This document shows, one piece after another, positions 2,055 through 39,994 of a stretch of 64,000 nucleotides of DNA. The stretch is from Kofleriaceae bacterium. Lineage in GTDB: Bacteria > Myxococcota_A > Polyangia > Haliangiales > Haliangiaceae. Position 1 is the first letter of the stretch. Each line of letters begins with the position of its first letter. The notes below the pieces were generated by a model. The model did not search any database and was not told the origin of the DNA. It worked only from the letters and a program-made list of their open reading frames with translations. A program made the position numbers and the translations under genes. The stretch is taken from NCBI GenBank assembly GCA_036271395.1, contig DATBAS010000193.1, forward strand, positions 117,097 through 181,096. Direction: 5' to 3'.

Positions 2055-3877
2055 GCCAGCCGCGGCAAGCCGCTCGCGTCGGCGGCGGCTTCATCCTCGA
2101 CCACGACGATCATCGGCACGTCGGCCATCGATCGCAGCATCGCGACGGCGCCGTACGCGCGCGCCTCGAAGATCACGGCGTCGGCGCGCGAGCGATCGTC
2201 GGCCGCGAGGATCGCGCCGCCGGCGAGCGGCAAGCACGCGCTCGCGATCGTGCCGAGCGGGCCCGAGCCGACGACGACGCACGGGCCGAGCAAGCTGATC
2301 GCGCCCGCGGTGCCGACGAGCGCGCCGGTCTGCGGCGGCAGCTCGTCGAGCACGCGCAGCACGGCGGGCACGAGCCGCACCCGCGACTCGCGATAGCTCG
2401 CGATGCCGCTCGCCGCGAGCCGACCGCGGCCGAGCGCTTCATCCCAGCGCCGGCCGAGCACCCGCGCGACGTCGACGGGCGCCGCGCCCGGATCGCCGGC
2501 GAGGTGCGCGCCGTAGAGCAACGCGAGCGCGGGCAACAGTTGCGGTGGCAGCTCGAACCGCGCGAGCACCTGCTCGCCGAGCGGCATCGCCGGCGGCTCG
2601 GGTAGCGCGATGCCGGCGGCGATCGCGCGGGTCCACGCGTGAAGCTCGTCGCGCCACGACGGTCGCGCGTCGAGCCAATCGAGCGCAGCGGCGGAGCGCG
2701 TGACCGGCAGCGCACGTACGCGCTCGCGCCACGCCGCGACCTTGTCGGACAGCGAGGCGGAGATCGGCGGCTGCACCGGCGGCGGCGCGGTCGCCGGGGT
2801 CGCGAGCTGCGGCCCCGGCAGCTTCGCCACGCGATGCAGCGACGGCTTGCGTCGCGGATCGGGGCCGAGCACGGGCGCCGATTTCGGCGGCTCCGGCGCC
2901 GCGGCCGGCTCGGCTTCCGCGAGCGTCGACGGTTTGGCAGGCTCGTCGACCACGGCCGGGGCCGGCGCCGGCATCGCCACGGCGTCGCCCTGCCCTTCGA
3001 GCACGACGATCGCGACCGGTCGCTTGGCCTGCGCGGCGAGCACGGCGAGCATACGGCCGACGACGAGCCCGGAGCCGTCGGCGCGATCGATGCTGTGGGC
3101 GGCGATCGTGCGCATCGGTTGGCGACCGTCGAGATCGATCGCGTAGAGCTTGCGTGAATCGGCGCCGAGGCACACGACGATGTCGCTCTTGGGGTGCGCG
3201 GCGACGTGCGCGATCGGCTCGGGCAGCTCGTGCGACTTCGGTTGGCCGCGGTTGACGAACGTGACGACATCGAGCCGGGTCGGATCGGCTTGCGTCGTCA
3301 TCCAGACGACGCGCTCGCTGCCGCCGACGGCGGTGATCGTCGAGGCGCGGCCGAGCTTGATCCGGCGTTTCGGCATGCGCGCGTGCGGATCCCACTCCTC
3401 GATCGCACCGCCGCCGGGCAACGCGACGACGAACTGCGCACCCGCCGCGCCGGCCGCGACCGGCACCGCACGCGCCGGAAATTGATACGGCGTCAGATGG
3501 CTCTCGCCGGCGGCGATCACCGCCGACGCGGTCGCGCCGATCGCGAGCCCGTACGAGCCGACGCTCGCGACGAGCTTCATCGGCGCTTCGAGCCGGATCT
3601 CGGCGAGCGTGCGCGGGCCGGCCGGATCGACGAGGTGCACGGTCGAGTGCGCCGCATAGCGCGACAGCACCGCGAGCCGCGCGCCGAGCCACACGACATC
3701 GTGCGCGCCGGCTTCGGCATCGATGCCGAGCTCGGCGCGCTCGCTGCACGCCGGCAAATCGATCACGACGACGCGGCTCGGCTCGATGATCGCGGCCATC
3801 GCGCCATCGTGCGCGACGGCGATACGCGAGCGCTCGCCGGGCACGAATGCAGACGACGCCGCCGAGCGCGCTACCAC
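2051..3877 (-). CDS. Hypothetical protein: beta-propeller-like N-terminal half, Pro/Ala-rich linker, helical C-terminal half
   Basis: 608-aa ORF with a GTG start, 12 nt downstream of the preceding minus-strand gene. CTAG overlap with the convergent gene at 2051-2054. No catalytic motif recognised. Confidence 0.6.
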   Translation of the reverse strand: MVARSAASSAFVPGERSRIAVAHDGAMAAIIEPSRVVVIDLPACSERAELGIDAEAGAHDVVWLGARLAVLSRYAAHSTVHLVDPAGPRTLAEIRLEAPMKLVASVGSYGLAIGATASAVIAAGESHLTPYQFPARAVPVAAGAAGAQFVVALPGGGAIEEWDPHARMPKRRIKLGRASTITAVGGSERVVWMTTQADPTRLDVVTFVNRGQPKSHELPEPIAHVAAHPKSDIVVCLGADSRKLYAIDLDGRQPMRTIAAHSIDRADGSGLVVGRMLAVLAAQAKRPVAIVVLEGQGDAVAMPAPAPAVVDEPAKPSTLAEAEPAAAPEPPKSAPVLGPDPRRKPSLHRVAKLPGPQLATPATAPPPVQPPISASLSDKVAAWRERVRALPVTRSAAALDWLDARPSWRDELHAWTRAIAAGIALPEPPAMPLGEQVLARFELPPQLLPALALLYGAHLAGDPGAAPVDVARVLGRRWDEALGRGRLAASGIASYRESRVRLVPAVLRVLDELPPQTGALVGTAGAISLLGPCVVVGSGPLGTIASACLPLAGGAILAADDRSRADAVIFEARAYGAVAMLRSMADVPMIVVVEDEAAADASGLPRLA

Positions 3878-3889
3878 GGCAAAATTCTA

Positions 3890-4222
3890 TCACCGCGCGA
3901 GCAGGCACGCGCGATCGGGCTTGCCGAGGGGCGGTAGGTCATCCTTGGCCTCGTCGCCGAGCACCGCGCAGACCGCGCCCGAGCCACAATCGCCATCGGT
4001 GTCGCACGACTGCGTGCACCGGCCGTGCGGCGTGCGGATTTGCGCGCTGCCCTCGGCCGCGTGGTGGATGCAGTAGAACGATCGACAGCCGAGCGAGTGC
4101 TCGCACTCGCCGCCGTAGCGCGACTGCCCCCACACGTTCCACGCGACGAGCGCGCCGCCGCCGAGCATGCCGATCGCGATCAGCGCGGTGCCGAGCTTGC
4201 TGAAGAATCCACGTACCGACAT
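3890..4222 (-). CDS. Small membrane-anchored cysteine-rich protein (110 aa)
   Basis: ATG at 4220-4222 overlaps the TGA of the upstream lipoprotein gene (ATGA). One N-terminal TM helix (LGTALIAIGMLGGGALVAW) is followed by 8 Cys in about 70 aa (CEHSLGCRSFYC...CTQSCDTDGDCGSGAVC...C). Confidence 0.6.
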   Translation of the reverse strand: MSVRGFFSKLGTALIAIGMLGGGALVAWNVWGQSRYGGECEHSLGCRSFYCIHHAAEGSAQIRTPHGRCTQSCDTDGDCGSGAVCAVLGDEAKDDLPPLGKPDRACLLAR

Positions 4223-5073
4223 CAGCAACCTCCGGCTTTCCGCGGCGGGCCCTGGATCTGCGCGTGGCGGCCCTCGGCGTCGTAGCGCCACGTCTCGATG
4301 ATCGGCTCGTCACACTCGGCGCCGACGACTTGCGACAGCGTGTCGCCGCCGCTGCCGTCGCGCACGATCACCGCGTGGCCGAGCAAGCTCTGCGTCCACG
4401 GGATGTACGCGAGCGCGCTGCCGCAACGCACCGGCGCGAAGCTGTACCAATCGACATCGCCGTCGTCGACGAGAAACACGTCGCCGGGCAATACCGAGCA
4501 AGCGGCCGGCCGCTGCGCGATCTGCCGAGCGAGCTCGTCGCGGCCACCGCCGTGCGCGTGCACCGCATCGACGTCGGCCCGGCTCCACGCCGCGACCGCG
4601 CCGCCGCGATCGACCACGGTGACGTGACGCGGCGCGACCGGCGGCTGCGCGTTCGGAGCGATCTCGACCGCGCTCGCGCGCAAATCCGCGATCACCGGGC
4701 TTGCCGCGGCGACCTGCTCGGCGGCCGGCTTGGTGCCGAACGCGCCGATCACGACGGCGATGCCGTGCGTCGCGGTCAGCCCGAGCTCGTCGGTGTGCAC
4801 GACGAACGGTAGGCCGAGGCCGAGCTTGCCGTCGAGCGCGGCGCGGATCGCTCGCGCCGATCGCTCGTCGGGCGCGAGGTACGCGGCGATCGCGCGCGGC
4901 GGCGTGCAGTCAGCGCACGTCACGTACGGCATCCAATAAATGCCGGCGGTGCGTTCGGGCGGCGTGCCCGACGGCGACGGTTCCTGCGCCGGTGGCGGCT
5001 GTAGCGTCGGCGCGACCGGCGCGGCTGCGCCGCCGCACGCGGCGAGCATCCACACGAGCGCGGCTTTCGGCAC
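4222..5073 (-). CDS. Lipoprotein, unknown function
   Basis: GTG start. Signal peptide plus lipobox (KAALVWMLAAC|GG), then a Pro-rich linker. Located 18 nt downstream of the 77-aa gene. Confidence 0.7.
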   Translation of the reverse strand: MPKAALVWMLAACGGAAAPVAPTLQPPPAQEPSPSGTPPERTAGIYWMPYVTCADCTPPRAIAAYLAPDERSARAIRAALDGKLGLGLPFVVHTDELGLTATHGIAVVIGAFGTKPAAEQVAAASPVIADLRASAVEIAPNAQPPVAPRHVTVVDRGGAVAAWSRADVDAVHAHGGGRDELARQIAQRPAACSVLPGDVFLVDDGDVDWYSFAPVRCGSALAYIPWTQSLLGHAVIVRDGSGGDTLSQVVGAECDEPIIETWRYDAEGRHAQIQGPPRKAGGC

Positions 5074-5091
5074 GCCGCGAGGATGACACGC

Positions 5092-5325
5092 CTACTTCGT
5101 GTTCGACCAGCCGCAGAGGTTGCCGATCGCCTGGACGACGCGGTGCTTGACGCCCGGCGTTTCGCTCGCGTCGGGAATCTCGTGCGCCTTCATCCAGTCG
5201 AACTGCGTGCGCGCCGTTTTCGGATCCGGCGTCTGGCACATCTCTTTGTATTGCGCGCCGCGCGAGCCGGGGCCGCCCGAGGTGACGCCGCCGAGGACGG
5301 TCGAGAGCTGAGTGATGGTCGTCAT
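5092..5325 (-). CDS. Small exported peptide/protein with double-glycine-type leader (77 aa)
   Basis: MTTITQLSTVLGG|V... The leader is paralogous to that of the upstream gene. Two Cys in the mature part. 9-nt gap to the upstream gene. Confidence 0.6.
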   Translation of the reverse strand: MTTITQLSTVLGGVTSGGPGSRGAQYKEMCQTPDPKTARTQFDWMKAHEIPDASETPGVKHRVVQAIGNLCGWSNTK

Positions 5326-5334
5326 GACGAGCTC

Positions 5335-5652
5335 CTAGTACGCGAGGTGGACGTGGTCGAAGTGGCCGGGGACCGAGTGCGCCTGCTTGCCGCGCAGCGA
5401 GTGATAGTTCTGATAGATCAGCTCGGTGGGCTGCGTGCCCTTCGCCCACTGAAAGTACTTCTCGCGCATCGCCGGCGAGCCATGGACATCGATCGCACGA
5501 CCGAGCCAGTGGAACGACGTCGGATAGTGCGGGCCTTCGATCGAGTGCGAGATGTTGCCTCCCATGTCGACGGCCTTTTGCCAGGCTCCGAACATTTTTT
5601 CGTTCATGCCGCCGGTGATCGTCGCGAGTTGATCGAGATCGATGGTCTGCAT
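5335..5652 (-). CDS. Double-glycine-leader protein with minimal LAS/M15-type zinc peptidase (peptidoglycan peptidase-like) domain (105 aa)
   Basis: MQTIDLDQLATITGG|M... leader. SFHWLGRAID matches the SxHxxGxAxD motif of VanY/M15 D-Ala-D-Ala peptidases. C-terminal HFDHVH supplies an HxH motif. Third codon positions are visibly more A/T-rich than in the neighbours. Confidence 0.7.
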   Translation of the reverse strand: MQTIDLDQLATITGGMNEKMFGAWQKAVDMGGNISHSIEGPHYPTSFHWLGRAIDVHGSPAMREKYFQWAKGTQPTELIYQNYHSLRGKQAHSVPGHFDHVHLAY

Positions 5653-5688
5653 GTTCGACGAACGCTGCAGTCGCGATGCCGAGGATAT

Positions 5689-6807
5689 ATGTCGACCACG
5701 GGAGACGAAGCGCGCGCGTTCGATCGAGCGTTCGCGGAGCTACGGCCTCGGGACCCGGCTGCACGAGTAGCCGGCGCTGGACAGCGGACGCGTCACGCAG
5801 CGCGCTACGATGCACGCGTGATCGATCGCTCCGAGCGTTACCGCGCCATCTCGGCGCTGCGCCCGCCGCTCGACGATGTCGCGCTCGCCGAGCTCGCCGA
5901 TGCGCTCGAAGATCACGAGCTGATCATGGTCGGCACCCCGGGCTGGGAAGAGGATCGCGACAGCATCGGCTGGGCCGCGCGGCGCGTGCTCGAGACCGCC
6001 GGACCGCGCGTCGAGCGCTTCGTCGCACCGAAGCTCGCGAGCGCCGACCGCGCGGTGATCGAGCACGCGCTCGCGATCCTCGCAAAGCGCCCGGTGCTCG
6101 AGCCGGCGACGATCGACGCGATGCTGCATCACGCGGCCGATCCGAAGCTCGCGTATCACGTCGGCACCGCGCTGCGCGGCAAGCTCGACGCGCGCGCGTT
6201 GCTCGACTATCCGGAGACGCGGCTCGCCGGTTTTCTCGCGACGCCCGATCTCGAGCCGGCGTGGCTGCTCCAGTTGCTCGGCGATGCCGCGCTGCGCTCG
6301 CGCGTGCTCGGGCGCATCGCCGAGCTCGCGCCGCCGCCGCACGAGCTGGCACCCGCGCTCGTGCCGTTGCTCGCCGACGCTGCCGTGCGTTATCACGCGA
6401 TCGGCGCGCTGGCGCGGCTGCGCCCGGACGACGCGTCGATCACCGCGGCGCTGGTCGATGCCAGTGCGGTCGAGCATCACGACACGTCGTTCGCGCTCGC
6501 GCAGCGGCCGGTCGCGCACCTACGGTCGCACGTCCCCGCGCTACTCGCGCAGCTGCACAGTGGCCGCACCGGCATCGCGCGTGTGCTCGGCACGCTCGGC
6601 GACACCGCGCCGCCCGAGGTCGCGCTCGCGCTCGGCCACGAGCTCGCCGCCGGCCGCCCGTACGTCGTGCTCGTCGACGCGCTCGACGCGCTCGGCGCCG
6701 CGGCCCTACCCGCGTTACCCGCGGTGCTCGCGGCGGCGCACGATCTCGACGATGAATCCGCGCGCGAAGCCGCTGCGCAGCTCGCGGTGAAGCTGCGCCG
6801 TCACTGA
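5689..6807 (+). CDS. HEAT/armadillo-like helical repeat protein
   Basis: ATG at 5689 inside the longer track ORF 5083-6807; the upstream part is a shadow of the minus-strand genes. Repetitive LxxLLxD.AVRxxAxxAL-type helices. Overlaps the convergent gene by 7 nt. Confidence 0.6.
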   Translation: MSTTGDEARAFDRAFAELRPRDPAARVAGAGQRTRHAARYDARVIDRSERYRAISALRPPLDDVALAELADALEDHELIMVGTPGWEEDRDSIGWAARRVLETAGPRVERFVAPKLASADRAVIEHALAILAKRPVLEPATIDAMLHHAADPKLAYHVGTALRGKLDARALLDYPETRLAGFLATPDLEPAWLLQLLGDAALRSRVLGRIAELAPPPHELAPALVPLLADAAVRYHAIGALARLRPDDASITAALVDASAVEHHDTSFALAQRPVAHLRSHVPALLAQLHSGRTGIARVLGTLGDTAPPEVALALGHELAAGRPYVVLVDALDALGAAALPALPAVLAAAHDLDDESAREAAAQLAVKLRRH

Positions 6808-7757
6808 AACAGGTAGCGCGCCTCCGCGCGTGGCTCGAGCGACTCGCGCGGCAGCAGCCCCTTGCCGTAGCGCTGCGGAGCGTCTGCGCGCGAGCCCGGC
6901 ACCGACACCGGCAGCACCTTGGTGTCGTGCCAGTAGTGCGCGTCGGCGGGGTTCGAGCCGCGATTCTCGAGATGAAGCCACGGGATGTAGCCGTGCTCGC
7001 GCTCGAGCGCGTGGCCCTCCGTGCTCATCTCGTACGCGCCGTAGCGACCTTGGTCGTCACGTGCGGTGAGCTCGCCGATCGGTCCGCCGTCGCTCGGCAC
7101 GTCGGCCGCGAGCTCCGGCGTGACGATCGTCAAGCACCGCCGCGTCAGTGGATTCGCGGCCAGCGCCTGATACGCGGCGAGCTTGCGGGGATTGCCGCGC
7201 GCGTCGATCGTCATCACGCGCTTGAGGTGCGGGCTCGTCGCGAGCACGGCGAGATCGCCCGGTGCGAGCGTCGATTCGGCAAAGCGGATCTCGTCGAGCC
7301 GCGATAGCCACGGACACGCGGCGAGCTCGGCGGCAGGGAACGCGTCGCCGTCGGGATCTGGGAAGAACTCGATGCCGCGGAGCGGTGCGAGCTTGGTCAA
7401 CACGTAGTCGCCGCGCTCGAGGAACAGGTGCGGGTTCATGCTGCACAGCCACGGCAGCCCGCGATGAAACTCGACGGTGCGATAGGTCTCGATCTCTCCC
7501 ATGTACATGCCGAGGTCGCGCGACCACCGGCGCGCGTGCTGGCGGAGCAACGCGTCTTCTTCGCCGCTCTTGCCGCCGATGAGCGAAACGCCCGGGTTGT
7601 AGAACGTCTCGCGCATCCGCTTCGACATCGCGAGCTGACGCTCGATGAAATCGGCGCGCGGCGGATCGCTCGCGGCGATCGCGGTCGCGAGCTTGTGTCT
7701 CGGCGCGTCGTCCTCGGGATTCGCGAGGATCGCGTCCATGCACTCGTCGGCTGTCAT
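6801..7757 (-). CDS. TIGR02996 (repeat-companion) domain protein with leucine-rich-repeat-like C-terminal part
   Basis: N-terminus [36 protein letters not shown] matches the TIGR02996 signature (NPDDD..R...AD.L...GDPRAEFI). Its ATG overlaps the TGA of the giant gene (ATGA at 7754-7757). Confidence 0.75.
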
Positions 7758-10700
7758 TCCGTCGAGCTTACACCGGTGTATTTTTCGGGGTGCGCGCGGC
7801 GATCCGCGCCGTAGCGTGCGGCTTGCGTCGTCGATGCCGCGTAGGCACCGTCGAAGAAGCCGCTCTCGTTCGGCGCGTCGTGCAGGCTGGACGCCTGGAC
7901 CCTCGCCTGGTCATCCGCCGGCAGCTTGCTCAAGTCGACCGCGCGGCTTGCGGCACCGGTGATGTCGATCGCCACGGACTTCGCGCCTGCGTGCGGGGTC
8001 ACCTCGACGCGGTACGCGATGTAGTGGCGATCGTCGTCGAACAGCGCCTTGAGCTCGACCTTGCCGCCGTTGCGCTCGGCGGCGTCGCACATCGCCGCGA
8101 TCGGCGCCGGCACGTCGTTGTAACGGCCGAGCGCCGAGATGTACGTATCGCCGACGAACGCTTTGTTGGCGCGCGCGTCCGGATCGTTCAGGTTCGCCGG
8201 GTCGATCGGCTTGACCGGCGTCGCATTGACATCGTAGCCGCCGGCCGCGTCCTTCTTCGGCCGGCCGAGCATGTAGCCATCCTCGAAGTGGAAGCGATTG
8301 TCCGCGGTCGCTTCGGGGGTCAAGCCGAAGCGCGCGCACAGATCCTTGCCGTGCTTTTGCACGACCCGGCGGAACTGATCGTTTTCGAGCAGGCCGGCCG
8401 GGGAGTCCTTGCCGACCATCGTGACATCGGCGCGCGGGTTCTTGTCGAGGATGATCTCGGCCGCGCTGATGCCGGTGCCGCCGGTGCCGCCGATCACGAC
8501 CTTGTTCATCTTCTGGATCTTCGCGTCTTCGAGCTGGTTGGCCTCGTCGCCCGTCAACAGGTGCTCGCGATCGTGCGCACGCAGGTTCGACCAGTTCTCG
8601 CCGGCTCCGAGCACGTCGAGCGCCGACTTCGCTCCTTTGGCGAGGTCCTCGTTCGCCAGGTTCGTCATCTGATCGCGCAGCGGTTGCGGAAGTGCGGCCA
8701 AGGCTCGCTGGGCATCGCCATCCGCTTGGCCGTGCATCGTCTTCAACACGCCGAGCGCGTGATCGGCTTCGCTCTTGATCGTCGCCGTCGCGGCCGGATC
8801 GGCTTTGACCGCGACGAGCGCTTTCTCGATGCCAAGCAGCGCTTGGCGCGGCGATGGTCCGCGAGCACCCGGCGCATTCTCGCGCGAGAAGCCGGTTGCC
8901 ATCGGCGGCACGCCGTCGACTTCGATCACGACCGGCGCGCTGCCGTCGTTCGGGGTGATCGTCGCGATCAGCGTGCCGTCGTCGCGCGCACCGAGCTCGG
9001 CGCGACCATCGATGAGGTCGCCCTGGATCGCGATCGAGTCCTGACAGAACTCGAGCGCCTTGACCGGCAAGCGGTTCTTGGCATCCGCGAACTCGTGCGG
9101 ATCGCCGATGCCGGCCGCCTTCATCGCCTCCATTTGCTGCGCGGTTTGCGCGACGGTCCCGCTCGCGTCTTTCGCCCAGCGCGCGTTCGCGTCGACCAGC
9201 AGCACGTTGGGATCGCGCGCCGACAGCGACGCGTTGCCACCGATCATCATCTTCCACTTCTTGTGGACGCCGTCTCGGATCATCTCGCGGATGTTCGCGA
9301 GCGTTTCCGCACTCTTCTTCACGCGCGCCGCACGTGCACCGTTGGCGAGCGTCGTGAGCTCGGCGGGCGTGACCACGTGATCGGCGCCCGTCGTCGGCAT
9401 CTTCGCGACGGTCGGGGCGTTCGCATCGCTGCGACCTTGCATGTCGAGCCGGTCCTGGTCGGCCCGGCTGCGCGTACGCTCGAGCTGCTGCTGATCGGTC
9501 GCCGACATCTCGGCTTCCGGAATGCGCGCCTTGTCGAGCGTCGCGGCCACCGACGGGTCACCAACCACCTGCTTGACGAGCTCGAAGCGTTCGTCCGCAT
9601 GCGGCGAGCCCTCGCGCAAGCCGAGCTCCTCGACCAGTGCCATCAGCTCGCTGCGAGCATGCGATGCGCCGGGCTCCTGGCCGGCCATGATGTCGTGCGC
9701 GAGCACGCCTAGCTCTGCGACGCGACCGCGGTCGTGTGGGCTGAGCTTGCCGGTGCCATCGCTGCCAGCACGCAAGACGTCGGCGCCGACCTTCTCGCCG
9801 GCGTCGAACAGCTCGCGGCGCGCCATGATTTCGGCGACCTCGTGCGCGACGGCTCGACGCACGTTCGCTTCTTCCATCTTGTCCGACAGCTGGATGACGT
9901 AACGACCCTCGATCGACTCGACGCCGCCCGCGACCGCGGTGCGTCCTTTCTTGCTCGGATTCAAGATCGATTGCGCGACCGTATCGACATTGAGCGGTAC
10001 GACGTCGACGCGAATCGTCAGCGCGGTGTCGCCCACTTTTACCAAGCGCGTGTTCTCGGCGATCGTCCGGACCTCGGGCTTCGCAGCGCGATCGACGCTT
10101 GCCTTCTCGACCGGACCGACCGACGCGAGCGCCTCGTCGAGCGCGGAGCGTCCCGTCGCGAGCACCGCGTCCGCGTGCGCCTTTTGCGCCTGCTTCGTCA
10201 TGTGCGACCAGCCCGGTTGGCTGTCGCCGAACTTCGATCCGGGCACGGCCGACGCCGTGACCTGGTAGCCACCGTCTTTTTCCTCGGCGACCTGCTTGGC
10301 GCCGGTCGCGGGCTTGGTCGAGGCTGGATCGGTCGGGCCGTGATCGGCCGGGTTGACGTGATCGCCGGGGTTGGGGTGATCGCCGCCGTTGCCGTGAGCG
10401 GCACCGGGCGTGCTCGGCGGCGTGACCTCGCCGGGTTTCGCGTTCGGCGTCGACGGATCGATCGTCGGATCGTGCGGCTCGGCCGGCGCCTTGCCCTGCG
10501 AGCGCTTGTAGGCGTCGATGATCTCCCCGCGATGTGCTTCGCCCGCGTTGTGGATCACCGAGCCGGCGACGGCCATCAACGCGTTCTGCGCGATCGCGTC
10601 CGTCATCTCCTGACCGATGCGATCGCTGACCACCTTCGCGCGCGCCATGACCTCTTGCTTCTTCGCCTCGATCTCGCTCGGCGGCTTGCCCGAGCTCTCG

Positions 10701-13700
10701 AGCGTCTGCAGCTCCTGGTACAGATCGGCGAGCGCGTCGACATCCTGCGATTGGAGCTGGCGCGCGGCCTGAACCGACTCGGCCGTCATCAGCACGGCTT
10801 GACCGCCCCAGTTCGCGGCCTCGAGTAGGAACCATCCCTTCGTGAACGCCTTGGCCTCGCCCGCCATCGGCAACACGTTGAGCGCGATCTCGCCGACCGA
10901 GCACGCCGCCTCGCCGAGCGTGAGCGTGCCGCGCTCCGAGTCCGTGCGCAGCCGATCGATCGCCGGGATCGAGTTGTATGCGATGAGCAGCGGCGCGACG
11001 ATGATCGCCGAGCCGGGCACGAACGCCATGATCGCCATCGCACCGAGGTTGGTGACGATGTTCGCGACCGGGCTCCACACCGTCTCTTTGAACCGCTTCC
11101 AGGTCGAGTCCGTGCCGAGCTGGAACCCGACCGTCTTGCCGTTGCCCTTGCCGATGGTCGGGCTGCCGTCCTGCATGCCCGTGTCGATCGACTCGGCCTC
11201 GATCGCGACGACACCTTTCGGGTACGCCTTGGCGAGGTCGACGAACGCGTCTTTCAGCGCTTCGTCGAACGTGTCGCCGTAGCCATGGGTCGTCGAGTCC
11301 TCGTTGTCGAATCGTCTCGACAGGTCGCGGAGCTGAACCGTGACCTTCTCTTGCGGCATGGCTCCGCCCTCGTCGTCACCCGATGACGGCTCGAAGTCGG
11401 TGTAGACCGAGCCGTAGAGCGTGAGCGCGCCGCTCGGAAGTCCGTCGGTGCGCGACAAATACGTGCCGCGAACCTGGAACGGCTGCCAGCCGTTCTTGCG
11501 GTCCTGCAAGAGCGCCTTGTCGGTGGCGTTCGACGCCTCGATCTGGCGATCGATCGCATCGAGCGCGTCTTGCGAGCCGCCGTTCGCCTTCAAGTACATC
11601 TTCGTCGCGAGCAGGCGCTTGCGGTAGTCGGCGCGAGTGGCCTCGCGTGGATCCGGCGTGTTGACATCGCTCGGCTTGAAGTCGGGTGGCAGCTCGCCGA
11701 CGGTCTTGAAGCCGTCGTCGTCATCGCCACTACCGACGATGCCGAACGTCTCCTTCGTCGTCTTCTCGTTCCGCGCCGCCATGTCGGTGAACGCTTCGCC
11801 GCGCAGGTCCTTCATCGCAGCAGCGGTCGACTTCACCTCGACGAGACGCGTGAAGTCCGCGGGCTCGAAGTACTGATCGAAGCTCGCGTGAACGGTGACG
11901 CGGAACGTGCCGGTGTCCTGACCTTCGGGCAGCACGAACGCGTGCTGGAGCTCGGCGATGTCGGTCTGGAGCACCGTGCCGCTCGTCGGAGCTGCACGCG
12001 TCGCTGCTCCAGGCGGAGGCGGTGGCGGCGTCGCCGGCAAGGCCGTCGGCATCGGCGCTGGAGTCGTCGGCGCTGGAGCTCGCGTCGTGCTCGGCGCGGG
12101 CGCAGCTGGCCCACCACCGCCGGTCGCCGGTGCACCACCACCTGCGGGCGCGGGCGCGCTCGATCCGCCGCTCGTCACGAGCTCGATGTGCCACTCGCAA
12201 TTGAGCAGCGTGACATCGCCTTGGTGACCCGGCGTGACGAACGGAACGCGCTCGTACTCATCGCTCGGGTAAAAGTTGGGCCACTTGACCTTGATCTCGA
12301 GCCATGCGGCGTGACCCGCCTCGACGACGTCGCGATCGATATCGAGGACGCCGGGAATCTTCTCGCCGTAGAAGTCTTTGAGCTTGAGCTTCGGCGTCGC
12401 GACCGGATCGCTCTTGTCTTTCTTGATGTCGCCACGCAACCAGCGCGAGTAGGCACTCTCGCCCGTGGTGTCCGGGTCGAAGAAGATCCGCTCGCCGAGC
12501 CGCTTGCCGATCTGCCACATCACGGCGCCGGAACCGACCTGTGCTTTCGCCTCGGCCGCGAGCTCCTGGAACCCTTGCAGCGCGCCGGGATCGGGCTTGA
12601 GCTCGGTCAGCGAGGCCATCGCTCGGATAATCTCGAGCCGCTGCGGATCGTCGAGCTCGATCACCGTTCCCGGCACGAGCGTTTGATCGGGCACGTACAG
12701 CGTGACGTCGACGGCGTCCTTGATCTGGCTTCGCGACGCGACCGGATGGGTGTCCGGCAAGCCCGTCCACTTGTAGGCACTCGCTTCGAGCTGCATCACC
12801 ACGATGTTGCCCTTGAGCTCGAAGGTCGCCTGTTGCGCCGCGACTTCGAGTCGATCCTTGTGAATCCAACCGAGCGCACCCAGCGCTTCGCGCGCACGAG
12901 ATACGGACATCCCGTGCTGGCCTTTGTCTACGAGCTTGAAATCATCGGCGGCACGGAGCCATGCCATGACCATCCAGAACTGCGCGGGCGCCTGCGCCGA
13001 GATGATCCTGTACGGCAAGTTGTTATCCGAGAACACCGGCCACTTCGAGCCCGGTGGAGTCACGGTGCCGTCGGCGGCATCGTCTTTCGCGCCGGGCGTC
13101 GTGGTCTTGCGCTGCACCGCCGCGCCGCCGCCGGTGCCGGCGTGCTCGTCGAGCAACGGCGCCGCTGACCTGCCGGCGACGACCGCATCGGCAACCGCGT
13201 CGGCGTGCTGCTCGTGTGGATCGCCCCCGCCGCCGTCGATGCCGCCCTTGAGCGATACGCCGCTGCGCTGCTGGACGACGTGCGCCGCTTCGTGCGCCGC
13301 CGTGTGTAAATCGGGCGCGCCACCGGCGAACGCGACGTCGTCGCCGGTCGCGTAGGCCTTCGCGCCGAGTTGCTGCGCCGACGCGTCGACACCGCCGCCG
13401 ACGTGCGCGCGAACGTTCGAGACATCGTGATGGCCGAACGCGGCTTGGATCTTGTCGCCGTGCGGCATCGCGCCGCCCGCGCCGAGACCAGCTTGCGCGA
13501 CCGCGGACGGATCGCCGGCGGTCGAGGCTCCATCGGCTTTGCGCTGCACCGGCGGTGCCGCCGATGCGACTTGGATCGGCGCCGCGACGTCGTTCCACGC
13601 CGTCGTCATCGTAGGCAGCGACTTGTCGATCGCCTGGTTCGTGACACCGTCGCCGACCTGGTTCGCGCCGTCGAGCATCCGGCTCTTCAGCGTGCGCTTG

Positions 13701-16700
13701 CCGTCGCGGATGCCGGCGTACGTGCGCTCGAACAGATCATCGAGCGCCTGCTCGGTATGCGAGAACGCGTCCTGGAGATGATCGGCGCTCTGGATGATCG
13801 TGTCGGCGATCTTCTGCGCGCTGCTCGGATCGATCGACATGTTCGAGAACCCGTCCATGTCGGTCTTCGTGTGCTGCGCGACCGTCTTGAACTCGTCGAC
13901 GATCTGCTTCGACGCCTTCTTCGCCGGTCCCTGTAGATCGACGCCTTGCGCGTCCTTGCCGGTGTGGTTCGTCAGCGCGAGCTTGAGCTGGTTGTGATAA
14001 TCGTCGGCGCGCGACTCGAGTTGCCCCGTCATCGAGTCGCCCTGACCGGCGACGTACTGCGATGCCGAGTGGACCGCGGCGGTGTCGCCGCTATCGTTGG
14101 TCGCGACCTCGGGCTCGGGCTGGGGCTGCGGCGCCGGCGCTTGCGGCTGCGGCGTCGTCGCCGATGCGGTCATCGCAGCCATCGCGACGGCCGCGACGCC
14201 ACCACCGCCCGCGGCGGCGGTCGTGCCGGCCGCACTCGCGCGCGCGTCGCGCTGCGTTTCGGCGGCCGCGTCGGCCTTTTGCTTCGCCTGCGCCGCCGCG
14301 ACTTCGGCGTGCAATTGCGCCAAGAAGGTCTGCGCGAACGCTTTCTCCTCGGCGAGCTGCTGCTCGAACGTCGCGATGTCGGCCATGAAGTTATCGGCGT
14401 CGGTGATGTTGCGATCGCACTCGCCGATCGCGTCGGCGGCGCCCTGCGCTTCCTTGGTCGCGTCGGCACCGAGCTTGATCGCGGTTTGATTCGCCTGGCC
14501 CGCGGTCTGCGCGCCGCCCTGCGCGACGCCGTGCGCCGCCGCTTGCTGGCGCTTGAGCGCGCCGGCGTAGTCGCGCATGTCGCCCATCGACACGCCGCAC
14601 AGCCCTTTGAGCACGACCGACGCGATCTTCTCCTGGATCCAGCCGAACACCTGGGCCGCTTTGTCTTTGGCCCAGCGCTTCACCGCGCCGAGCACTCGGC
14701 CCCAGAACCCGCGGTCCTCGGGCTCGGGCAGCTCGGTCGCCGCCTTTTGATTCGCGGCACCGCGCGCTTCACCTTGCTTGCTCTCGCCTTGGCCGGCGTG
14801 CGATTCCGACGCGCCCGCGCTCGCGACGTTTTGCTGCGTGCTCTGGATCGTCGCGCCGGTCGCTTGTTGATGCGCTTGCGCCGCCGCGGCGCGCAGCTTC
14901 GCGTACTCCTGATAGCGGCCGTACACGGCGAGCGTGTCGACGGCCTTCTGCTTGCCCTCGATCTGCGCCTTCTTGAACTCGACGCCGACCTTGCGCATCC
15001 AGCCGAAGTCGGACTGCGCGTGATCGAAGTCCGGCATCATCGCCGGCCAATACGGCAACGGCTGCGCGGCCGACTCTTCCATCGCCGCCATCGCGACGCT
15101 CGCGACGGTGGGCGCCGGCGCGTCGGGCTCCGGGCCCGCTGCGGCGACGCCGGGTGCGCCGGGTGCCACCTGCGGCGTGATCGCCATCGTCTCGCTGACC
15201 ACGGGTGGCGCGACCGCCGTCGGGCCTGGCGCCGGCGTCGGCGCCGACGTCGTCGGGGCCGGTGCGTTCTGCGGCGGCGCGCTGACCGGACGCGGCTTCG
15301 CCGTGATCGGCGACAACATGCTGCGCACGCTCGAGCCGACGCCCTGCGGCCGCTTGCTCGTTCGCACGAAGTTCGCGAAGTCGGCCATCTGCGCCTGTTG
15401 CGCCGTCGCCGCGATGTCGGAGTACGTGCCGTGACCGCCGCGGCTCGCCGCGTTGCCCGCGGCCTTGCCCTTGTCGTACTTGACCGTCTTCTTGAGGTTG
15501 CCCTTTTCGGCCGCCTGCCACGCCGTCGGGCCGTCTTTGAGCCCGGCGAGCTCGAGCGCTGGCTGCGCCGCGCTCCACACGTTCGAGCCGACATCGCCCC
15601 AGTTCTTGTAGTCGGGATGGCGCACGGCTTCGCCGCCCGCGGCGATCGCCGCGACATCCTTCTCGTGGACCGCGTTGAGCCGGCGCGCTTCGTCGAGCGG
15701 CTTGAGCTGGCTGTTGAGCGCGGCGAGCTTGGTGTCGTCTTCGGCGCTGCGCGATGCCTTCGCGAGCAGGTCGGCGCGCTCGGAGTCTTGCGCTTTGAAG
15801 TCGCCCTCGAGCTGGAACCGCTTCGCGCGCGAGCCGTGCAGCGTGTCCATCTGCATGTCACGCGCGTTCTTGCCGGTGAACGAGTTGGTCTCGTTCGAGA
15901 AGTATTCGTCGCGGTGGCGCTCGAACCGCGTCTTCTTCATCTCCTCGATGCGCGCGTCGGTCGCGGCCTTCGCCTCTTTCGCTTCGAAGTCGGTGGTGGC
16001 GTCGGCACGCACGGCCGCGCCGCGCGACGCGACGAACTTCTGCTCGGTCGCATCGCTGCGGATCTCGTCGGGGTTGGTCTTGCCGCGCTTGTCGAGGTAG
16101 TTCTGCCACCGCGTCTCTTCGAGGTGCGCGGCGTCGTTCGCCTGCACTTGCATCGCGAGCCGGCGCGTCTCGAGCTCGGATTGATCCGCCGCGGCGGTCA
16201 TCCGCTGCGCGAACTTGGTGTCGCTGCCGGCGTTGCCGACGGCCGAGCCGGCGCGCTTGCCGAGATCGCCGACTTTCTCTTCGAGATCGAACTTGCTCGC
16301 GACCGAGCCGCTCCATGCGCCGACGCGATCGAGCCCGCGCGCGAACGCGGTGTCGCCGTAGCGCGACATCAGCTTGGTCTGCATCGCTTCGAGGTGCTCG
16401 GGCGCGGCATTCCACGCCTTGCCGACGCGGCTCTCGCTGATCGCGGTCTTCGTGCGCGCGATCATGCCGGTGTCTTTCCACGCACCGCCGACGCGGTCCA
16501 TCGCGGCACCGCCGAAGCCGAGCTTGCGCACGATCTTGTTCGCGAACAGCTTCAGATCACCGCTCGCCTTGATCGAGACCCGGCCGATCGTCGCTTTCGC
16601 GCGGCGCATCAGCGCGCCGACTACGCCCTTGCTCGAGCTCATCAGCCCCGACATGAACTTCGGCCCGAAGATCATCGCCATGTTGACGAAGCCCGAGGCC

Positions 16701-17776
16701 GCATCGTTCGCCTCCGACATCATCAAGTCGGCGGTCGCGGCTTTCTCTTCCGCCGACGAGCCCGCCGCGATCTGCTGCGCGAGCACGACGCCGTTGAGCC
16801 CGGTGAGAATTCCGGATAGCGCGAACGCGACGGCCTCGCAGATGATGCCGACGACGTTCAGGATCCGCGCGATGCCCGAGACCGCCACGCCGATCGGCGG
16901 AAAGATCATGCCGAGCAGGCCGATCACGGTGAGGACGATGCCGAGCTTGCCGCAGATGTTGCCGACGACGCCGCAGACGTTCTTGACGGCCGACAAGCCC
17001 GTCATGATGCCGCCGAGGATGCCGTGGACTTTGCGATACGGGTTGTTCGCCCACACCGCACCGGCTTCTTTGCCGGCGCCGAGGAAGTTCGCGGTTGCCG
17101 CGACACCGCGCTCGACGGCGCCGCCCTGCGCGACGTAGACGTCGAGCTGGCCGTTGAAGCCCTGCGCGATGTCGCCCATCTGCTTGATGCGGCCGAGCGT
17201 CTGCGTGGTTTGCGCCGCTTTCGGCGTGTACGCGTTGAGGATCCCATCGAGCTGCGAGTCGCCGCCCGCCGTCGCGACCGCGGCTGCGATCGTCGGCGCG
17301 GGCGCGGCCGCGGGTGCCGCCGGCGCGGCCGATTTCGCCGCGGGCGTCGCCGGTAGCGGCGCGTGTTGCGCGGGCGTGCCGCCGGTCGCGGGCTGCGGCG
17401 TGGTCGGTCCGGCGTGCGCGGCGATCGTCGGCTGCGCGACCTGCGGATGTGCGACCGGACCCGGCGTCGGTGCTGCGCCTTCTTCTTTGGGCGCCTTCGA
17501 CTGGTTTTGCGCGACGAGGTTCTTCTGCTCCTCGACCTTGCCTTGAACCTGGCTTTTTTCGTCGGCCGCGCGCGAATCGACCTCGCCGAGCATGCTCTGT
17601 AGCCAGCCCATCGGGCTGTTCTTGATCGCGTCTTCAACCCGCGAGATGGTCGCGGCGTCGCCGCCACCGTCGGCTTGCGTGACCGCGGCGTGCTTCGCGA
17701 TCGCGGCCTGCGCGTTCGCGGCCCCATGCGCAGCTCCGGCGCCTGCTCCAGCTCCACCAGCGGGTGCTTCAGCCAT
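7754..17776 (-). CDS. Giant mosaic protein (3,340 aa) with internal DUF4157-type module, two hydrophobic glycine-zipper modules, coiled-coil/PT-rich linkers and Rossmann-like C-terminal domain; putative polymorphic toxin/effector
   Basis: Single uninterrupted GC3-rich ORF. DUF4157-like segment [35 protein letters not shown]...[11 protein letters not shown] at about nt 13108-13550. Hydrophobic modules at about 16760-17030 and 10780-11080. [19 protein letters not shown] at about 8470-8510. Confidence 0.9.
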
Positions 17777-17842: not shown

Positions 17843-19012
17843 CTAGCTGGGATTCCTGGTCTTTTCGTGTGCGATCTGATCGGCCAGGCGGTTCGCGTGC
17901 TCGACGTCGCGCGCGATCGCGGAAAGGCGGTCCGGGCCGATGCGATCGCGAAGGCGCGAGAGCAGCGGCCGGAATCGTTCGCCGACATCGCCGCCCGTCG
18001 CATCGGCGAGCGCGCGATGCGCCTCGACGATCGTGCGAAACGCCGACACGTGATCGCCGGAGCGCGCGTAGAGCTCGGCCATGATCCCGACGGATGCCAC
18101 GTACTGCGCGACGTCGTGACGCTCCGCGGCCTGTCGCGCGAGCTCGAGCACGCGATCGATCGCGTGGGCGGTCTTGCCGCCGCTCGCGAGCACGCCGGCT
18201 TCCGCGATCAGCGCGGCCGCGTGGAGCTCGGCGAGCTCGTGCTGCTTCGCGAGCTCGAGCGCGCGTGTCACGGTGGCCGCGGCCTCGTCGCGTGCGATCG
18301 CATCGGCCGTCGCCACGAGCGCGCCGGCGAGCGCGAGCCGCGCTTCGATCTCGTCGGCGGGCGAGCCGGCGTCTCGCGCGATCGGCACCGCGGCTCGCAG
18401 CGAGCGCGCGGCGCGCACCGGCTCGCCGATCGACAGCGCGAACGCGGCGAGCAACTGGTGGCCGGCGAACGCGACGTCGGGCTCGACGACGCCGGTCACG
18501 ACCTGCGCGACCGCGTCGAACGCGACGGCGTCGGGCGGATCGTCGTGCAGCGCGAGCTCGGCGATCGCGAGCGCGACCTCGACGGTGACGACGTCCCAAC
18601 CGTCGCCGGTCCCGAACGCCGGCAACCGCGCCGCCGCTTGCACGAGCGTCGCGCTCGCCAGCGCACGCGGCTCGGGGCCGCGCCGGATCGCGATGCGGCA
18701 CGCGCGCACGCCGGCCAAGAATCGCAGCACGGTGTCGTCCGGGGCGTGACGGCCGACCGCTTCGAGCGCCTGATCGGCGCCTTCGTAGTCGCCTTCGGTC
18801 ATCTTCACGCTCGCGAGCCGCAGCAGCAGGCGCGCGCGCAGGATCGCGTGCTCGGCGGTTTCGAGCAGCGGCGCGGCGGCGTCGATCGCTGCGCGCACGG
18901 CGTCGGCGCGATGACCGAGCAGCGGCTCGCGCTCGGCGCGCTCGACGGCGATGCGAGCATCGTCCATGGCCGACAACGTATCATCGTATGCTAGGGGCGT
19001 GAGCGAGGCCAC
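17843..19012 (-). CDS. All-alpha (TPR-like) Ala/Leu/Arg-rich protein; start ambiguous (GTG 19012 or ATG 18967)
   Basis: 389-aa ORF 66 nt upstream of the giant gene on the same strand. TPR-like G-Y/A patterns (MTEGDYEGADQALEAV). The ATG at 18965-18967 (MDDARIAV...) would remove the overlap with the divergent gene. Confidence 0.6.
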   Translation of the reverse strand: MASLTPLAYDDTLSAMDDARIAVERAEREPLLGHRADAVRAAIDAAAPLLETAEHAILRARLLLRLASVKMTEGDYEGADQALEAVGRHAPDDTVLRFLAGVRACRIAIRRGPEPRALASATLVQAAARLPAFGTGDGWDVVTVEVALAIAELALHDDPPDAVAFDAVAQVVTGVVEPDVAFAGHQLLAAFALSIGEPVRAARSLRAAVPIARDAGSPADEIEARLALAGALVATADAIARDEAAATVTRALELAKQHELAELHAAALIAEAGVLASGGKTAHAIDRVLELARQAAERHDVAQYVASVGIMAELYARSGDHVSAFRTIVEAHRALADATGGDVGERFRPLLSRLRDRIGPDRLSAIARDVEHANRLADQIAHEKTRNPS

Positions 19013-20084
19013 GCCGGTCGTACAGCTCGCGCAGCTGCGCGCGCGGATCGCGGCGTTCGCGCGCGGCGGTCGCTACGATCTCGCGATCGGTTTGCTCGGC
19101 GAGCTCGCACGCGTCGATCTCGCGCTCGGCCTGGCCGCGGACGGCGTCCAGCGCGCGCGCCAGGCGGTCCAGCTCGCCGACGAGCGCGGCGAACCGAGCG
19201 CCGGCCCGTTGATCGTGCTCGCCGCGACGCTACTCGCCGCCGATTCTCCCGACGCTGCGATCGATGCTTGCGCGCTTGCGATCGAGCGGACGCGGTCAAC
19301 CGAACGACCGCGCGTCGAGCTGCTCGCCCGGCTCGTCGGCGGCGCGGCCCAGCGCCGCGCGAATCGACTCGCCGCCGCGCGCACCCTGCTCGACTCCGCG
19401 CGCGGCGCCGCGGCGCGAATCGGCGAGACGCGGCTCGCCGCGCTCGCGCTCGCCGAGCTGGCGTGGATCGACCTCGCCGAAGATCGACCGGATGCCGCGG
19501 CGACGTGCTTCGAGTTCGCGGCGCGGTTCTTCGCGCATGGCCACGGCGACGGCGACGCCGACGCCGAGCTCGACGCCGGCGCGCTAGCGACGGCGTGCTG
19601 GATCGTCGCCGGCGACGACACCGGCGTCGATGAATTCTGCAAGCGCGCGCGTGCAGCGAAGCGACCCGAGCTTGCCGCGTACGTCGACGGCGTCGTCGCC
19701 GAGCTCGCGCTGCGCCGCAATTCGCCGCAGATGCGCGACGCGATCGCACGCGCCGCCGCGAGCGCCGAAGCGGCCCGCGACGCCAACGCGCTCGCGCATG
19801 CGCTGTCCGCGCGCGCGAGGCTGCGCCAAGCGCGGACGTCGCTCGATCCGGCCGATCGCGCGCGGCACCTCGAAGCCGGCATCGAGCTCGCGCTCGCGCT
19901 CGATCGCCGCCGCGCCGGCGCGGAGCTCGGCACGCTGATGATCGCGCTGGTCGAAGACGCCGCGCGCACGCGAACGCCGCCGGCGCTCGATGCGATCGCG
20001 CGGCTGGCCGCGGCGATCGAGCACGTCGGCGACGCGAGCCTCGCGGATCTCGCCGGCGCCGTGCTCGCCGAGGTCGCGCGATAA
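18999..20084 (+). CDS. All-alpha (TPR-like) Ala/Leu/Arg-rich protein
   Basis: GTG at 18999 within track ORF 18951-20084. Helical repeat composition. TAA stop at 20082-20084, followed by a palindromic element. Confidence 0.55.
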   Translation: MSEATPVVQLAQLRARIAAFARGGRYDLAIGLLGELARVDLALGLAADGVQRARQAVQLADERGEPSAGPLIVLAATLLAADSPDAAIDACALAIERTRSTERPRVELLARLVGGAAQRRANRLAAARTLLDSARGAAARIGETRLAALALAELAWIDLAEDRPDAAATCFEFAARFFAHGHGDGDADAELDAGALATACWIVAGDDTGVDEFCKRARAAKRPELAAYVDGVVAELALRRNSPQMRDAIARAAASAEAARDANALAHALSARARLRQARTSLDPADRARHLEAGIELALALDRRRAGAELGTLMIALVEDAARTRTPPALDAIARLAAAIEHVGDASLADLAGAVLAEVAR

Positions 20085-20099
20085 CGCGTCGCCGCACGA

Positions 20100-20121
20100 A
20101 CCGACCAACCAGTTGGTCGGT
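20100..20121. repeat. Palindromic element copy A: ACCGACCAAC-CA-GTTGGTCGGT
   Basis: 10-bp perfect arms with a 2-nt spacer. Nested in an outer CGAACCG...CGGTTCG pair (20097-20130). Intergenic between 20084 and 20164. Confidence 0.8.
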
Positions 20122-20163
20122 CGCGGTTCGCGCCTGCGCGCGAGGTCGGAGTAGAATGAGACG

Positions 20164-22259
<2,096 letters not shown>

Positions 22260-22263
<4 letters not shown>

Positions 22264-24158: not shown

Positions 24159-24224
24159 CGCGAACTCGCCACGGCGTCGCGACCGTCTTGACACAGTCGC
24201 CATCGGGCGCATAGTCGGCATGCA

Positions 24225-39437: not shown

Positions 39438-39994
39438 GCGGCTACGCGATCGGCGCGTGCTGGGCGGTGTTCGCGTCGTACTGGCTCGTCAGTGCGCTGC
39501 GCGTGAAAGCGGTGAGCCAGCGCGAGAGCTTCGCCCGCACGCTGACGCACCGCTCGCTGTTGGCTCTCGGCTATGCGTTGCTCGTCGAGCGCTGGCTGCC
39601 GGCGCCGTTCGATCTGCGCTGGTTGCCGGACCTCACCGCGGTTCGCATCGCCGGCGATGTCGTCTGCGCGGTCGGTCTGGTGATCGCGATCGCCGCGCGG
39701 CGCGCACTCGCCGGCAACTGGAGCAGCGCGGTCACGCTCAAACAGGACCACGAGCTGATCCGCGCCGGCGCGTATCGCTTCGTGCGCCACCCGATCTACA
39801 CCGGCATGTTGACGATGTTCCTCGGCAGCGCGATCGAAGATGGCCAGCTCCGCGGCGCGCTCGCGTTCGCGCTGACGCTCGTCGCGTTCCTGATCAAGTC
39901 GCGGCGCGAGGAGCTGCTGCTCGCGCAGCACTTCCCCGACGAGTATCCGGCGTACAAGCGCGACGTCAAGGCGCTGATCCCGTTCGTGCTCTAG
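39434..39994 (+). CDS. Isoprenylcysteine carboxyl methyltransferase (ICMT/PEMT-like) family membrane protein
   Basis: ATG at 39434. TM helices. LIRAGAYRFVRHPIYTG...EE..L...F...Y..Y signature. Confidence 0.8.
   Translation: MSGYAIGACWAVFASYWLVSALRVKAVSQRESFARTLTHRSLLALGYALLVERWLPAPFDLRWLPDLTAVRIAGDVVCAVGLVIAIAARRALAGNWSSAVTLKQDHELIRAGAYRFVRHPIYTGMLTMFLGSAIEDGQLRGALAFALTLVAFLIKSRREELLLAQHFPDEYPAYKRDVKALIPFVL

Follow-up and report, generated by a model that had tools for sequence, protein, structure and literature searches.

A DUF4157 module between paired VQRK motifs inside a giant modular protein of Kofleriaceae

Described DUF4157 systems and the Kofleriaceae locus

Among the markers that identify effectors of contractile injection systems (CIS), DUF4157 (Pfam PF13699, since renamed eCIS_core) is the most widespread. 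It marks the effectors of extracellular contractile injection systems (eCIS; PMC8213781), its function is still termed elusive in the literature of 2021-2026, and it was proposed in 2012 to be the constant releasing (autoproteolytic) peptidase of polymorphic toxins of the Photorhabdus virulence cassette (PVC) type (PMC3482391). Published accounts place the domain at or near the N-terminus (PMC8213781, PMC3482391, PMC11126660). Here we describe a 64-kb stretch of DNA from a Kofleriaceae assembly (64,000 nucleotides of contig DATBAS010000193.1; hereafter the window, to which coordinates refer unless another locus is named), in which a single uninterrupted open reading frame (ORF) of 3,340 amino acids (7754-17776, minus strand) carries a DUF4157 module in its interior. 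The encoded protein runs from a conserved trunk through a VQRK motif, the DUF4157 module and another VQRK motif into a variable C-terminal array. We consider it probable that the module is a portable joint in a giant modular effector, set between the conserved trunk and an exchangeable C-terminal array. One chromosomal site then offers a natural allelic series, which shows an xQRK-bounded module of about 150 residues to be what is gained, lost and exchanged as a unit.

The PVC-metallopeptidase polymorphic toxins (PMC3482391) share with the window protein the domain itself and its HExxHxxQ-E signature, the succession of a constant peptidase module and variable C-terminal regions that diversify by recombination, the linkage to a CDC48-related AAA+ ATPase, and the frequent lack of a recognisable immunity gene. 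They differ in that their domain forms the N-terminal constant part, whereas the window module stands behind a conserved trunk of 1,400 residues, and modules of the window type are present or absent at one and the same junction. In addition, neither a fixed xQRK bracket nor proteins with two to six copies are described for those toxins, and the 64-kb window has no PVC or eCIS structural genes near the giant gene. The eCIS-associated toxins (EATs; Geller 2021, PMC8213781; Danov 2024, PMC11297309) likewise carry the DUF4157 marker and linkers of more than 1,000 residues leading to C-terminal domains, and many of them have no other annotated domain. However, their definition rests on closeness to an eCIS operon (88% lie within 10 genes), and they carry an N-terminal DUF4157 after a short disordered leader, while in the window protein the core starts at residue 1437 of 3,340, and no eCIS core operon lies within about 10 genes among the ORFs scanned across the window.

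Other described proteins resemble the window protein in part. Tme of Streptomyces davawensis (BN159_7576, 2,247 amino acids) combines DUF4157 with predicted transmembrane helices, coiled-coil or disordered stretches and a C-terminal enzyme (PMC11126660). The window protein is comparable in its very long ORF, its hydrophobic blocks (residues 267-334 and 2240-2273), and its helical stretches of charged character and linkers rich in Pro and Ala. In Tme, however, DUF4157 occupies the N-terminus and the gene is part of a CIS cluster, whereas the window order is trunk and then DUF4157; the giant protein has no tape-measure similarity in PHROGs at E<=0.1. In S. lividans the small DUF4157 protein Sle2 binds spike proteins as well as the coiled-coil effector Sle1 (bioRxiv 10.1101/2025.11.06.686954), so that a small DUF4157 protein can serve in trans to link an effector with coiled coil and membrane hairpin to the spike complex, as a separate adaptor. 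By analogy, the window protein looks like an Sle1/Sle2-type pair fused in the opposite order. The AlgoCIS effectors Cgo1 and Cgo2 (PMC8894135) are similar in having a disordered N-terminal region, DUF4157 and a variable C-terminal domain. Their N-terminal region is short and serves as a loading signal, whereas the window protein begins with a conserved multi-domain trunk of 1,400 residues. Short conserved peptides also mark the border between constant and variable parts in CdiA (VENN) and in Rhs proteins (DPxGL, where the motif is an autoproteolytic site as well), and MARTX toxins free several effector domains from one giant precursor. Those proteins differ from ours in their unrelated domains and chemistry; in the window protein the marker consists of two motifs that enclose a metallopeptidase-like module, and this module may recur several times within one protein.

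In relation to the published descriptions, it appears to be new that a positional xQRK bracket defines a module of about 150 residues, that single proteins carry up to six DUF4157 modules, that an allelic series has the module as an indel and the downstream motif as its exchange point, and that the module stands behind, not ahead of, the conserved part of the protein. Such boundaries would provide concrete module limits for the protein engineering of CIS cargo and a rule for dividing unannotated giant myxobacterial proteins into cassettes.

The module, its flanking motifs and its junctions

Searching the whole giant protein against Pfam with hmmscan returned a single family, PF13699, at residues 1442-1506 (13259-13453), where model positions 9-78 of 79 are covered with E=1.7e-11 and 44.6 bits, the cut-off being 22. 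This agrees with a preliminary description of the window, made from its letters and translations, which had called DUF4157 from a peptide that we find at residues 1447-1506 (13259-13438, minus strand). Its coordinates (13108-13550) prove accurate to within 2 nucleotides, and its placement of the module about 1,400 residues into the protein is correct. Nothing beyond PF13699 was found for the giant protein in Pfam, NCBIfam, PHROGs or PADLOC, an exact-sequence look-up gave no match, a PDB sequence search with the whole protein was empty, and tblastn detected no second, degenerate DUF4157 copy in the window. The module core extends further than the Pfam match, comprising about 107 residues (1437-1543; 13148-13468, minus strand), and scores 151.9 bits with a hidden Markov model (HMM) that we built.

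The 167 residues around the Pfam match are 55-69% identical to hundreds of Myxococcota DUF4157 proteins, which come from metagenome-assembled genomes of Kofleriaceae, Polyangia and other Myxococcota. In our alignment of these sequences (A1) the conserved unit opens with LPHxDxIQxxFGxHDVSGVxAHVGG, closes with AVQRK and reaches about 45 residues beyond the Pfam model, and this extension holds an invariant D/E-x-x-E helix. The zinc-binding motif HEAAH (residues 1495-1499; 13280-13294, minus strand) is followed by VVQQ, and in the alignment the columns H96, E97, H100, Q103 and Q104 of this stretch are invariant, as are D120 and E123 further on. Outside the Pfam model, Glu1522 in a GDPHEQHAD helix (13211-13213, minus strand) is a candidate third metal ligand. 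With HEAAHVVQQ at residues 1495-1503 and E1522, the window module carries the published PVC-metallopeptidase signature HExxHxxQ-E (Zhang et al., PMC3482391). HExxHxxQ is kept in 308 of 312 homologous modules, and the full signature including the downstream Glu in 302 of the 312 and in 63 of the 65 internal ones. An AlphaFold2 (AF2) model of the module computed with the alignment has a mean predicted local distance difference test (pLDDT) score of 83.7. Its core, built of three strands and of helices, one of which bears HExxH, is predicted with confidence. The two VQRK motifs lie outside it, in flanking blocks with pLDDT of about 48-63, and the flanks of the module are probably flexible in this model.

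The two VQRK motifs that had been reported to bracket the module were recovered at residues 1410-1413 (13538-13549, minus strand), 27 residues before the core, and at residues 1554-1557 (13106-13117, minus strand), 11 residues past the core and at the breakpoint between conserved and variable DNA. VQRK occurs at just these two sites in the 3,340 residues; the composition of the protein predicts 0.03 occurrences, and two or more were seen in 0.04% of 20,000 shuffles. The resulting layout of VQRK, a linker of about 26 residues, the core of about 107, a linker of about 10 and again VQRK amounts to about 150 residues in total. Bracket statistics were obtained by scanning the HMM of the core over the 262 close homologues fetched. 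A [VIL]Q[RK]x motif occurs within 60 residues upstream in 141 of 292 modules (modal position -30 to -26) and within 40 residues downstream in 151 of 273 (modal position +10 to +14), against a chance expectation of about 3% upstream and about 2% downstream; with a background of 0.0006 per residue, the flanks are enriched roughly 20-fold on both sides. The exact [VIL]QRK form is found in 75 of 292 upstream and 66 of 273 downstream flanks, where about 1% is expected, so that the loose definition of the motif yields figures near 50% and the strict one near 25%. At -27 and +11, the window motifs sit at the modal positions of the family. This positional enrichment indicates that the bracket is a feature of a DUF4157 subfamily, and for that subfamily it confirms the expectation that in shorter proteins motifs of the QRK type border DUF4157 close to the N-terminus.

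The junctions of the module were compared among orthologous loci. It should be noted that the allelic series rests on seven loci, and that a scan of the genome collection with the trunk gave two loci only. Locus L001, a metagenome contig encoding protein P0145, remains in synteny with the window, with about 80% of nucleotides identical, from 25783 down to 13109. Beyond this point 8.8 kb of L001 (13946-22732) have no similarity to 6.5 kb of the window (6648-13108), after which synteny resumes for at least 5.6 kb. The variable segment of the window (6648-13105, minus strand) encodes the C-terminal 1,783 residues of the giant protein and a 318-residue ORF. At the protein level, P0145 is 79% identical to window residues 267-1561 and unrelated beyond. 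The breakpoint with L001, as placed by the alignment, is the downstream VQRK. In locus L002, which carries unrelated genes, the module DNA is 72-74% identical to that of the window, a resemblance that breaks off at 13088 and 13109.

The upstream junction is resolved by locus L007, a Kofleriaceae genome in which a 6.26-Mb contig has the same carA/pyrC/hisS neighbourhood and encodes a giant protein of 3,389 residues. Its homology to the window protein covers residues 23-1403 and stops just before the upstream VQRK. The L007 junction reads APTMIARKEVDATP and passes directly into the cassette that follows the module in P0145. Since P0145 and L007 align on both sides of the module (residues 1-1155 with 261-1410, and 1314-2134 with 1432-2261), VQRK, module and VQRD form a clean indel of 158 residues, with a single IARK at the junction in L007. 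In more distant Myxococcota (L003, L005 and L006) the trunk stands alone, without DUF4157; the L003 trunk has its stop codon at the equivalent of about residue 1390, just before the first VQRK, and in both L003 and L005 the next gene after the trunk is a homologue of window 2051-3877. The alleles at this site are therefore a trunk followed by a stop; trunk, IARK and a cassette B; trunk, VQRK, module, VQRD and cassette B; and, in the window, trunk, VQRK, module, VQRK and a different cassette C. A sharp border between a conserved N-terminal and a variable C-terminal region in related strains, which is a mark of polymorphic toxins, is seen when the window is compared with L001, and L007 adds a third allele. 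As the alignments place them, both VQRK motifs coincide with recombination junctions.

Other DUF4157 proteins account for much of the variable C-terminus. Residues 1934-2504, which include a second hydrophobic block at 2240-2273 (10265-11977, minus strand), form a cassette that is common to other DUF4157 proteins, being 51% identical to residues 631-1096 of P0212 and also matching P0172 and P0168. Residues 2505-3322, comprising an AHEVAE segment and a C-terminal GxGxxG-like domain (7811-10264, minus strand), are 38% identical to the C-terminus of P0235, a protein of 2,283 residues with an N-terminal DUF4157. The C-terminal half of the window protein is hence a mosaic of segments that otherwise follow canonical N-terminal modules. 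The module is a complete, autonomous unit that can be gained or lost, and it marks the C-terminal exchange point. Recombination of an upstream part onto a DUF4157 protein, suggested in the preliminary description, is supported by the free-standing trunk in relatives, the mosaic C-terminus and the loss of L001 similarity right after the second VQRK.

When 1.84 billion representative proteins were searched exhaustively, 13,528 relatives of the module emerged. Most single-copy relatives carry it at residues 30-100, while the best-ranked relatives are giant proteins with two to six modules. For instance, P0121 (3,825 residues) and P0122 (4,082 residues, on locus L009 at 2676-14924) have five modules each, P0123 (4,594 residues) has six, P0125 (3,943 residues) and P0141 (6,000 residues) have four, and P0198 (3,776 residues) has two. 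P0198 repeats the local arrangement of the window at residues 1129-1277, with VQRK, module and IQRK (PTIQRKAATP). Among the 142 close homologues of at least 300 residues, a module starts beyond residue 300 in 38, and more rarely (8) this is so for the first module; both counts are upper estimates, as the relatives were ranked by summed score, which favours multi-copy proteins. The uniqueness implied earlier for the internal position does not hold against these 38 homologues and the giants with four to six modules. An internal DUF4157 is thus, judging from the homologues retrieved, atypical with respect to the literature yet recurrent in this clade. In P0121-P0125 the blocks of homology between paralogues begin at xQRK motifs ahead of the modules, for example at positions 681, 2454 and 3604 of P0122 against 1575, 2324 and 1574 of P0125.

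A separate observation concerns short DUF4157 proteins in the databases. P0008, P0027 and P0048 have Arg/Pro-rich tails past the downstream VQRK that resemble out-of-frame translation, and some short DUF4157 entries may represent only pieces, truncated or frameshifted, of far longer modular genes.

Readings of the VQRK-bracketed module

In the portable-joint reading, a conserved, largely helical and presumably membrane-active trunk of about 1,400 residues stands upstream, genetically tied to an operon with a Pvc15-like AAA+ ATPase, and an exchangeable array of cassettes of about 1,800 residues with its own downstream gene follows the module. The giant protein would then be an effector of the polymorphic-toxin type that diversifies by recombination at its modules. 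The module itself could be an adaptor linking cargo to a spike or a loading machinery of the contractile-injection type, or a peptidase that releases cargo by cutting the flexible VQRK linkers, and these roles need not exclude each other. Self-cleavage at VQRK, in line with the internal processing that the preliminary description offered as its other possibility, is plausible given the intact catalytic signature and the placement of the motifs; for the long-standing 'releasing peptidase' hypothesis VQRK is a well-defined candidate site of cleavage.

Several observations weigh against a portable joint in an injected effector. Genes for sheath, tube, baseplate or spike were detected neither in the 64-kb window nor in the 10-kb flanks of related loci, the tail-gene families screened among the scanned window ORFs being Phage_sheath, T4_gp19, GPW_gp25, Baseplate_J, DUF4255 and PAAR. 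Homologues of the ATPase also accompany trunk-only proteins that lack DUF4157, and because the cluster persists where DUF4157 is absent, the ATPase may have the trunk as its partner instead of the module. The C-terminal region has no toxin domain in Pfam, NCBIfam, PHROG, PADLOC or PDB searches, and the 318-residue ORF behind it has no match in Pfam, NCBIfam, PHROG or PADLOC and none to an immunity family. Cargo loading in AlgoCIS does not require DUF4157 (bioRxiv 10.64898/2026.05.27.728243), and the toxicity of Cgo1 is independent of its HExxH motifs (PMC8894135). Foldseek found no match below E=3.6 in the PDB for the confident module model, and a PDB sequence search with the module profile found no solved relative, so the zincin assignment rests on the motifs and a published HHpred result. 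Finally, the comparison loci are mostly metagenome assemblies, and L001 is a nanopore assembly with frameshifts.

The peptidase role can be carried further, in that the HExxH module might cut near both VQRK motifs and free the trunk, the module of about 150 residues and the C-terminal array; in giants with four to six modules each cassette would be released. We regard this as possible but rather doubtful. It is favoured by the near-complete retention of the catalytic signature in internal modules as in all others, by motifs that keep a constant spacing from the core on either side and lie in low-pLDDT linkers, by conservative V/I/L variation at the first motif position, which fits selection on the peptide and not on the DNA, and by the autoproteolytic releasing role already proposed for DUF4157; small free-standing modules, moreover, exist among the homologues and end shortly past the downstream motif. 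On the other hand, the studies of DUF4157 proteins cited here hold no experimental demonstration of cleavage, the Cgo1 phenotype does not depend on HExxH, the motif is present at only about half of the module flanks even under its loose definition, and there is no structural match that would confirm a substrate cleft. The fullest version, in which VQRK-bracketed modules are self-excising protease joints of a toxin polyprotein, double as its genetic joints and are serviced by a Pvc15-like unfoldase with no adjacent tail, seems unlikely to us. If true, such joints would be a new bacterial route to make and diversify multi-effector toxins.

The motifs could also be read as a pure recombination scar, with the module DNA providing homology for exchange and VQRK being the edge of that homology, a peptide with no function. 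The identity of 72-74% between module DNA in the unrelated genes of L002 and in the window, which ends at the downstream VQRK, speaks for such a scar, as do breakpoints that coincide with the module edges. Yet the DNA stretches coding the two VQRK motifs have only about 13 nucleotides in common. Moreover, paralogues of 50-65% identity retain the motif and the catalytic residues in their protein sequences, which implies purifying selection on the peptide beyond mere DNA homology. We hold a mere scar to be improbable. It is more improbable still, to the point of being hardly credible, that the gene is an artefact, either a chimera mis-joined at a repeated module or two genes read as one. A module that is conserved and multi-copy in these genomes is admittedly the type of repeat that breaks metagenome assemblies, and several short database proteins have tails that seem out of frame. 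However, L001 synteny holds on both sides of the variable segment, and an independent assembly (L007) encodes a comparable giant at the same locus. The P0198 giant has the same internal order of motif, module and motif, and no Shine-Dalgarno-like sequence or plausible restart precedes M1391. The GC content at third codon positions (GC3) is 0.77-0.92 in each 150-codon window of the giant ORF, which argues that its frame is coding throughout. A portable joint between trunk and array remains the reading that we prefer.

Trunk, neighbouring genes and the variable segment

The trunk (residues 1 to about 1403; 13568-17776, minus strand) begins with an N-terminus rich in Ala and Pro and further comprises a hydrophobic helical region, long helical stretches of charged character, and linkers rich in Pro, where statements on coiled coil and disorder are based on composition and pLDDT only. 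The hydrophobic block at residues 267-334 (16775-16978, minus strand) is transmembrane-like, with Kyte-Doolittle peaks of up to 2.28, and is weakly similar (26%) to hydrophobic blocks behind DUF4157 modules in P0122 and P0123. Trunk identity to the window protein is 79% in P0145 of L001, 58% in both L007 and L004, 44% in L003 and 37% in L005; no Pfam, PHROG or PDB match was found for the trunk, profile searches included. We weighed an internal start of translation at M1391 but rejected it, as it has no Shine-Dalgarno-like sequence and the residues there belong to the trunk in L007. The metagenome proteins P0121-P0125 open with a second, divergent type of DUF4157 (GDFLLAHELTHVVQAG), and in them modules of the Myxococcota type alternate with repeated cassettes that include a hydrophobic 'LFPPLAPVGA' block and a 'SWWGRLKAWFKEKVF' region. 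These two regions are weakly similar to trunk residues 223-340 and 996-1150, and the trunk therefore looks like one cargo cassette of the family.

Directly upstream of the giant gene lies a conserved gene of 273 residues (17846-18664, minus strand), which has homologues in the same position in L001 (75%), L004, L005, L006 and L007. Divergent from it runs an operon whose first gene (18707-20084, plus strand; about 365-470 residues) is also conserved. This gene aligns with L001 6889-8310 in two frames (18707-18976 and 18975-20078), which means that either one assembly is frameshifted or the gene is split in the window. It is followed by an AAA+ ATPase of 699 residues (20164-22263, plus strand), which has a winged-helix N domain (PF22977, residues 49-203), a degenerate D1 with GAPGVGRK at 250-257 in this first nucleotide-binding domain, and an active D2 (PF00004, residues 496-620) with Walker A at 499-506 and Walker B at 553-558. 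Its best solved relatives are CDC48/p97, and a 'CDC48-related' ATPase clade has been named for PVC-type systems (PMC3482391). The same domain layout is described for Pvc15, the cargo-loading ATPase of the Photorhabdus virulence cassette, and ATPases of the Afp15/Pvc15 type are associated with EATs. In Pvc15 the corresponding motifs are G499-K502 and D554/E555 (PMC11495950); the motif numbering of the window ATPase lies within 3 residues of these when compared by published layout, not by aligned sequence.

The next gene of the same operon, whose start overlaps the ATPase stop, encodes a HEAT-like helical repeat protein of 632 residues (22260-24158, plus strand) with a weak, sub-threshold match to PF13646 (HEAT_2). 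The operon of the 365-470-residue protein, the ATPase and the HEAT-like protein is followed by MgtC, an arrangement that is kept in L001 and L004-L007. Window 17846-24911 thus corresponds to a conserved Myxococcota cluster, in which the operon diverges from a protein of about 270-420 residues and a trunk of about 1,400, and the locus flags this association of a Pvc15-like ATPase, a HEAT protein and the trunk. For the neighbours of 273, about 365-470, 318, 283, 109 and 608 residues no significant family match was obtained, and a distant ATPase relative (P0354 on L008) has no informative context.

Within the variable segment, the AHEVAE segment (residues 2624-2736; 9569-9907, minus strand) is 43% identical to part of the unrelated giant P0198. 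On this similarity it is a recurring cassette, which resembles a HExxH site without matching it. The last 351 residues (2990-3340; 7757-8809, minus strand) have just two homologues in 5.8 billion proteins, P0356 and P0357, and the AF2 model of this part is poor (pLDDT 52). A dinucleotide-binding-like motif and conserved GRxNDxP, DxTGAASR and DAPxESGxF motifs can be seen in it. The 318-residue ORF (6801-7757, minus strand; GC3 0.87), whose start overlaps the stop of the giant gene (ATGA), is a candidate cognate partner or immunity protein. Its sole relative is a 25%-identical ORF, inverted, in the variable segment of L001. Its N-terminus resembles the N-terminal TIGR02996 repeat-companion domain, which is frequent in Myxococcota and Planctomycetes, but NCBIfam gave no match at E<=0.01.

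The variable segment has no compositional anomaly, and neither tRNA genes nor Rfam elements were found in the 64-kb window. Adjoining the segment, about 770 bp (5881-6647) are 72% identical to L001 at the nucleotide level and form the distal border of the exchanged segment. No confident gene could be assigned at 5083-6807, where rival ORFs occur on both strands, with a GC content that is atypical at the codon positions, and L001 is likewise without a gene call. The rest of the window holds housekeeping genes, and at 39991-42477 (minus strand) a protein of 828 residues with at least nine CarboxypepD_reg (transthyretin-like) repeats, which is unrelated to the module.

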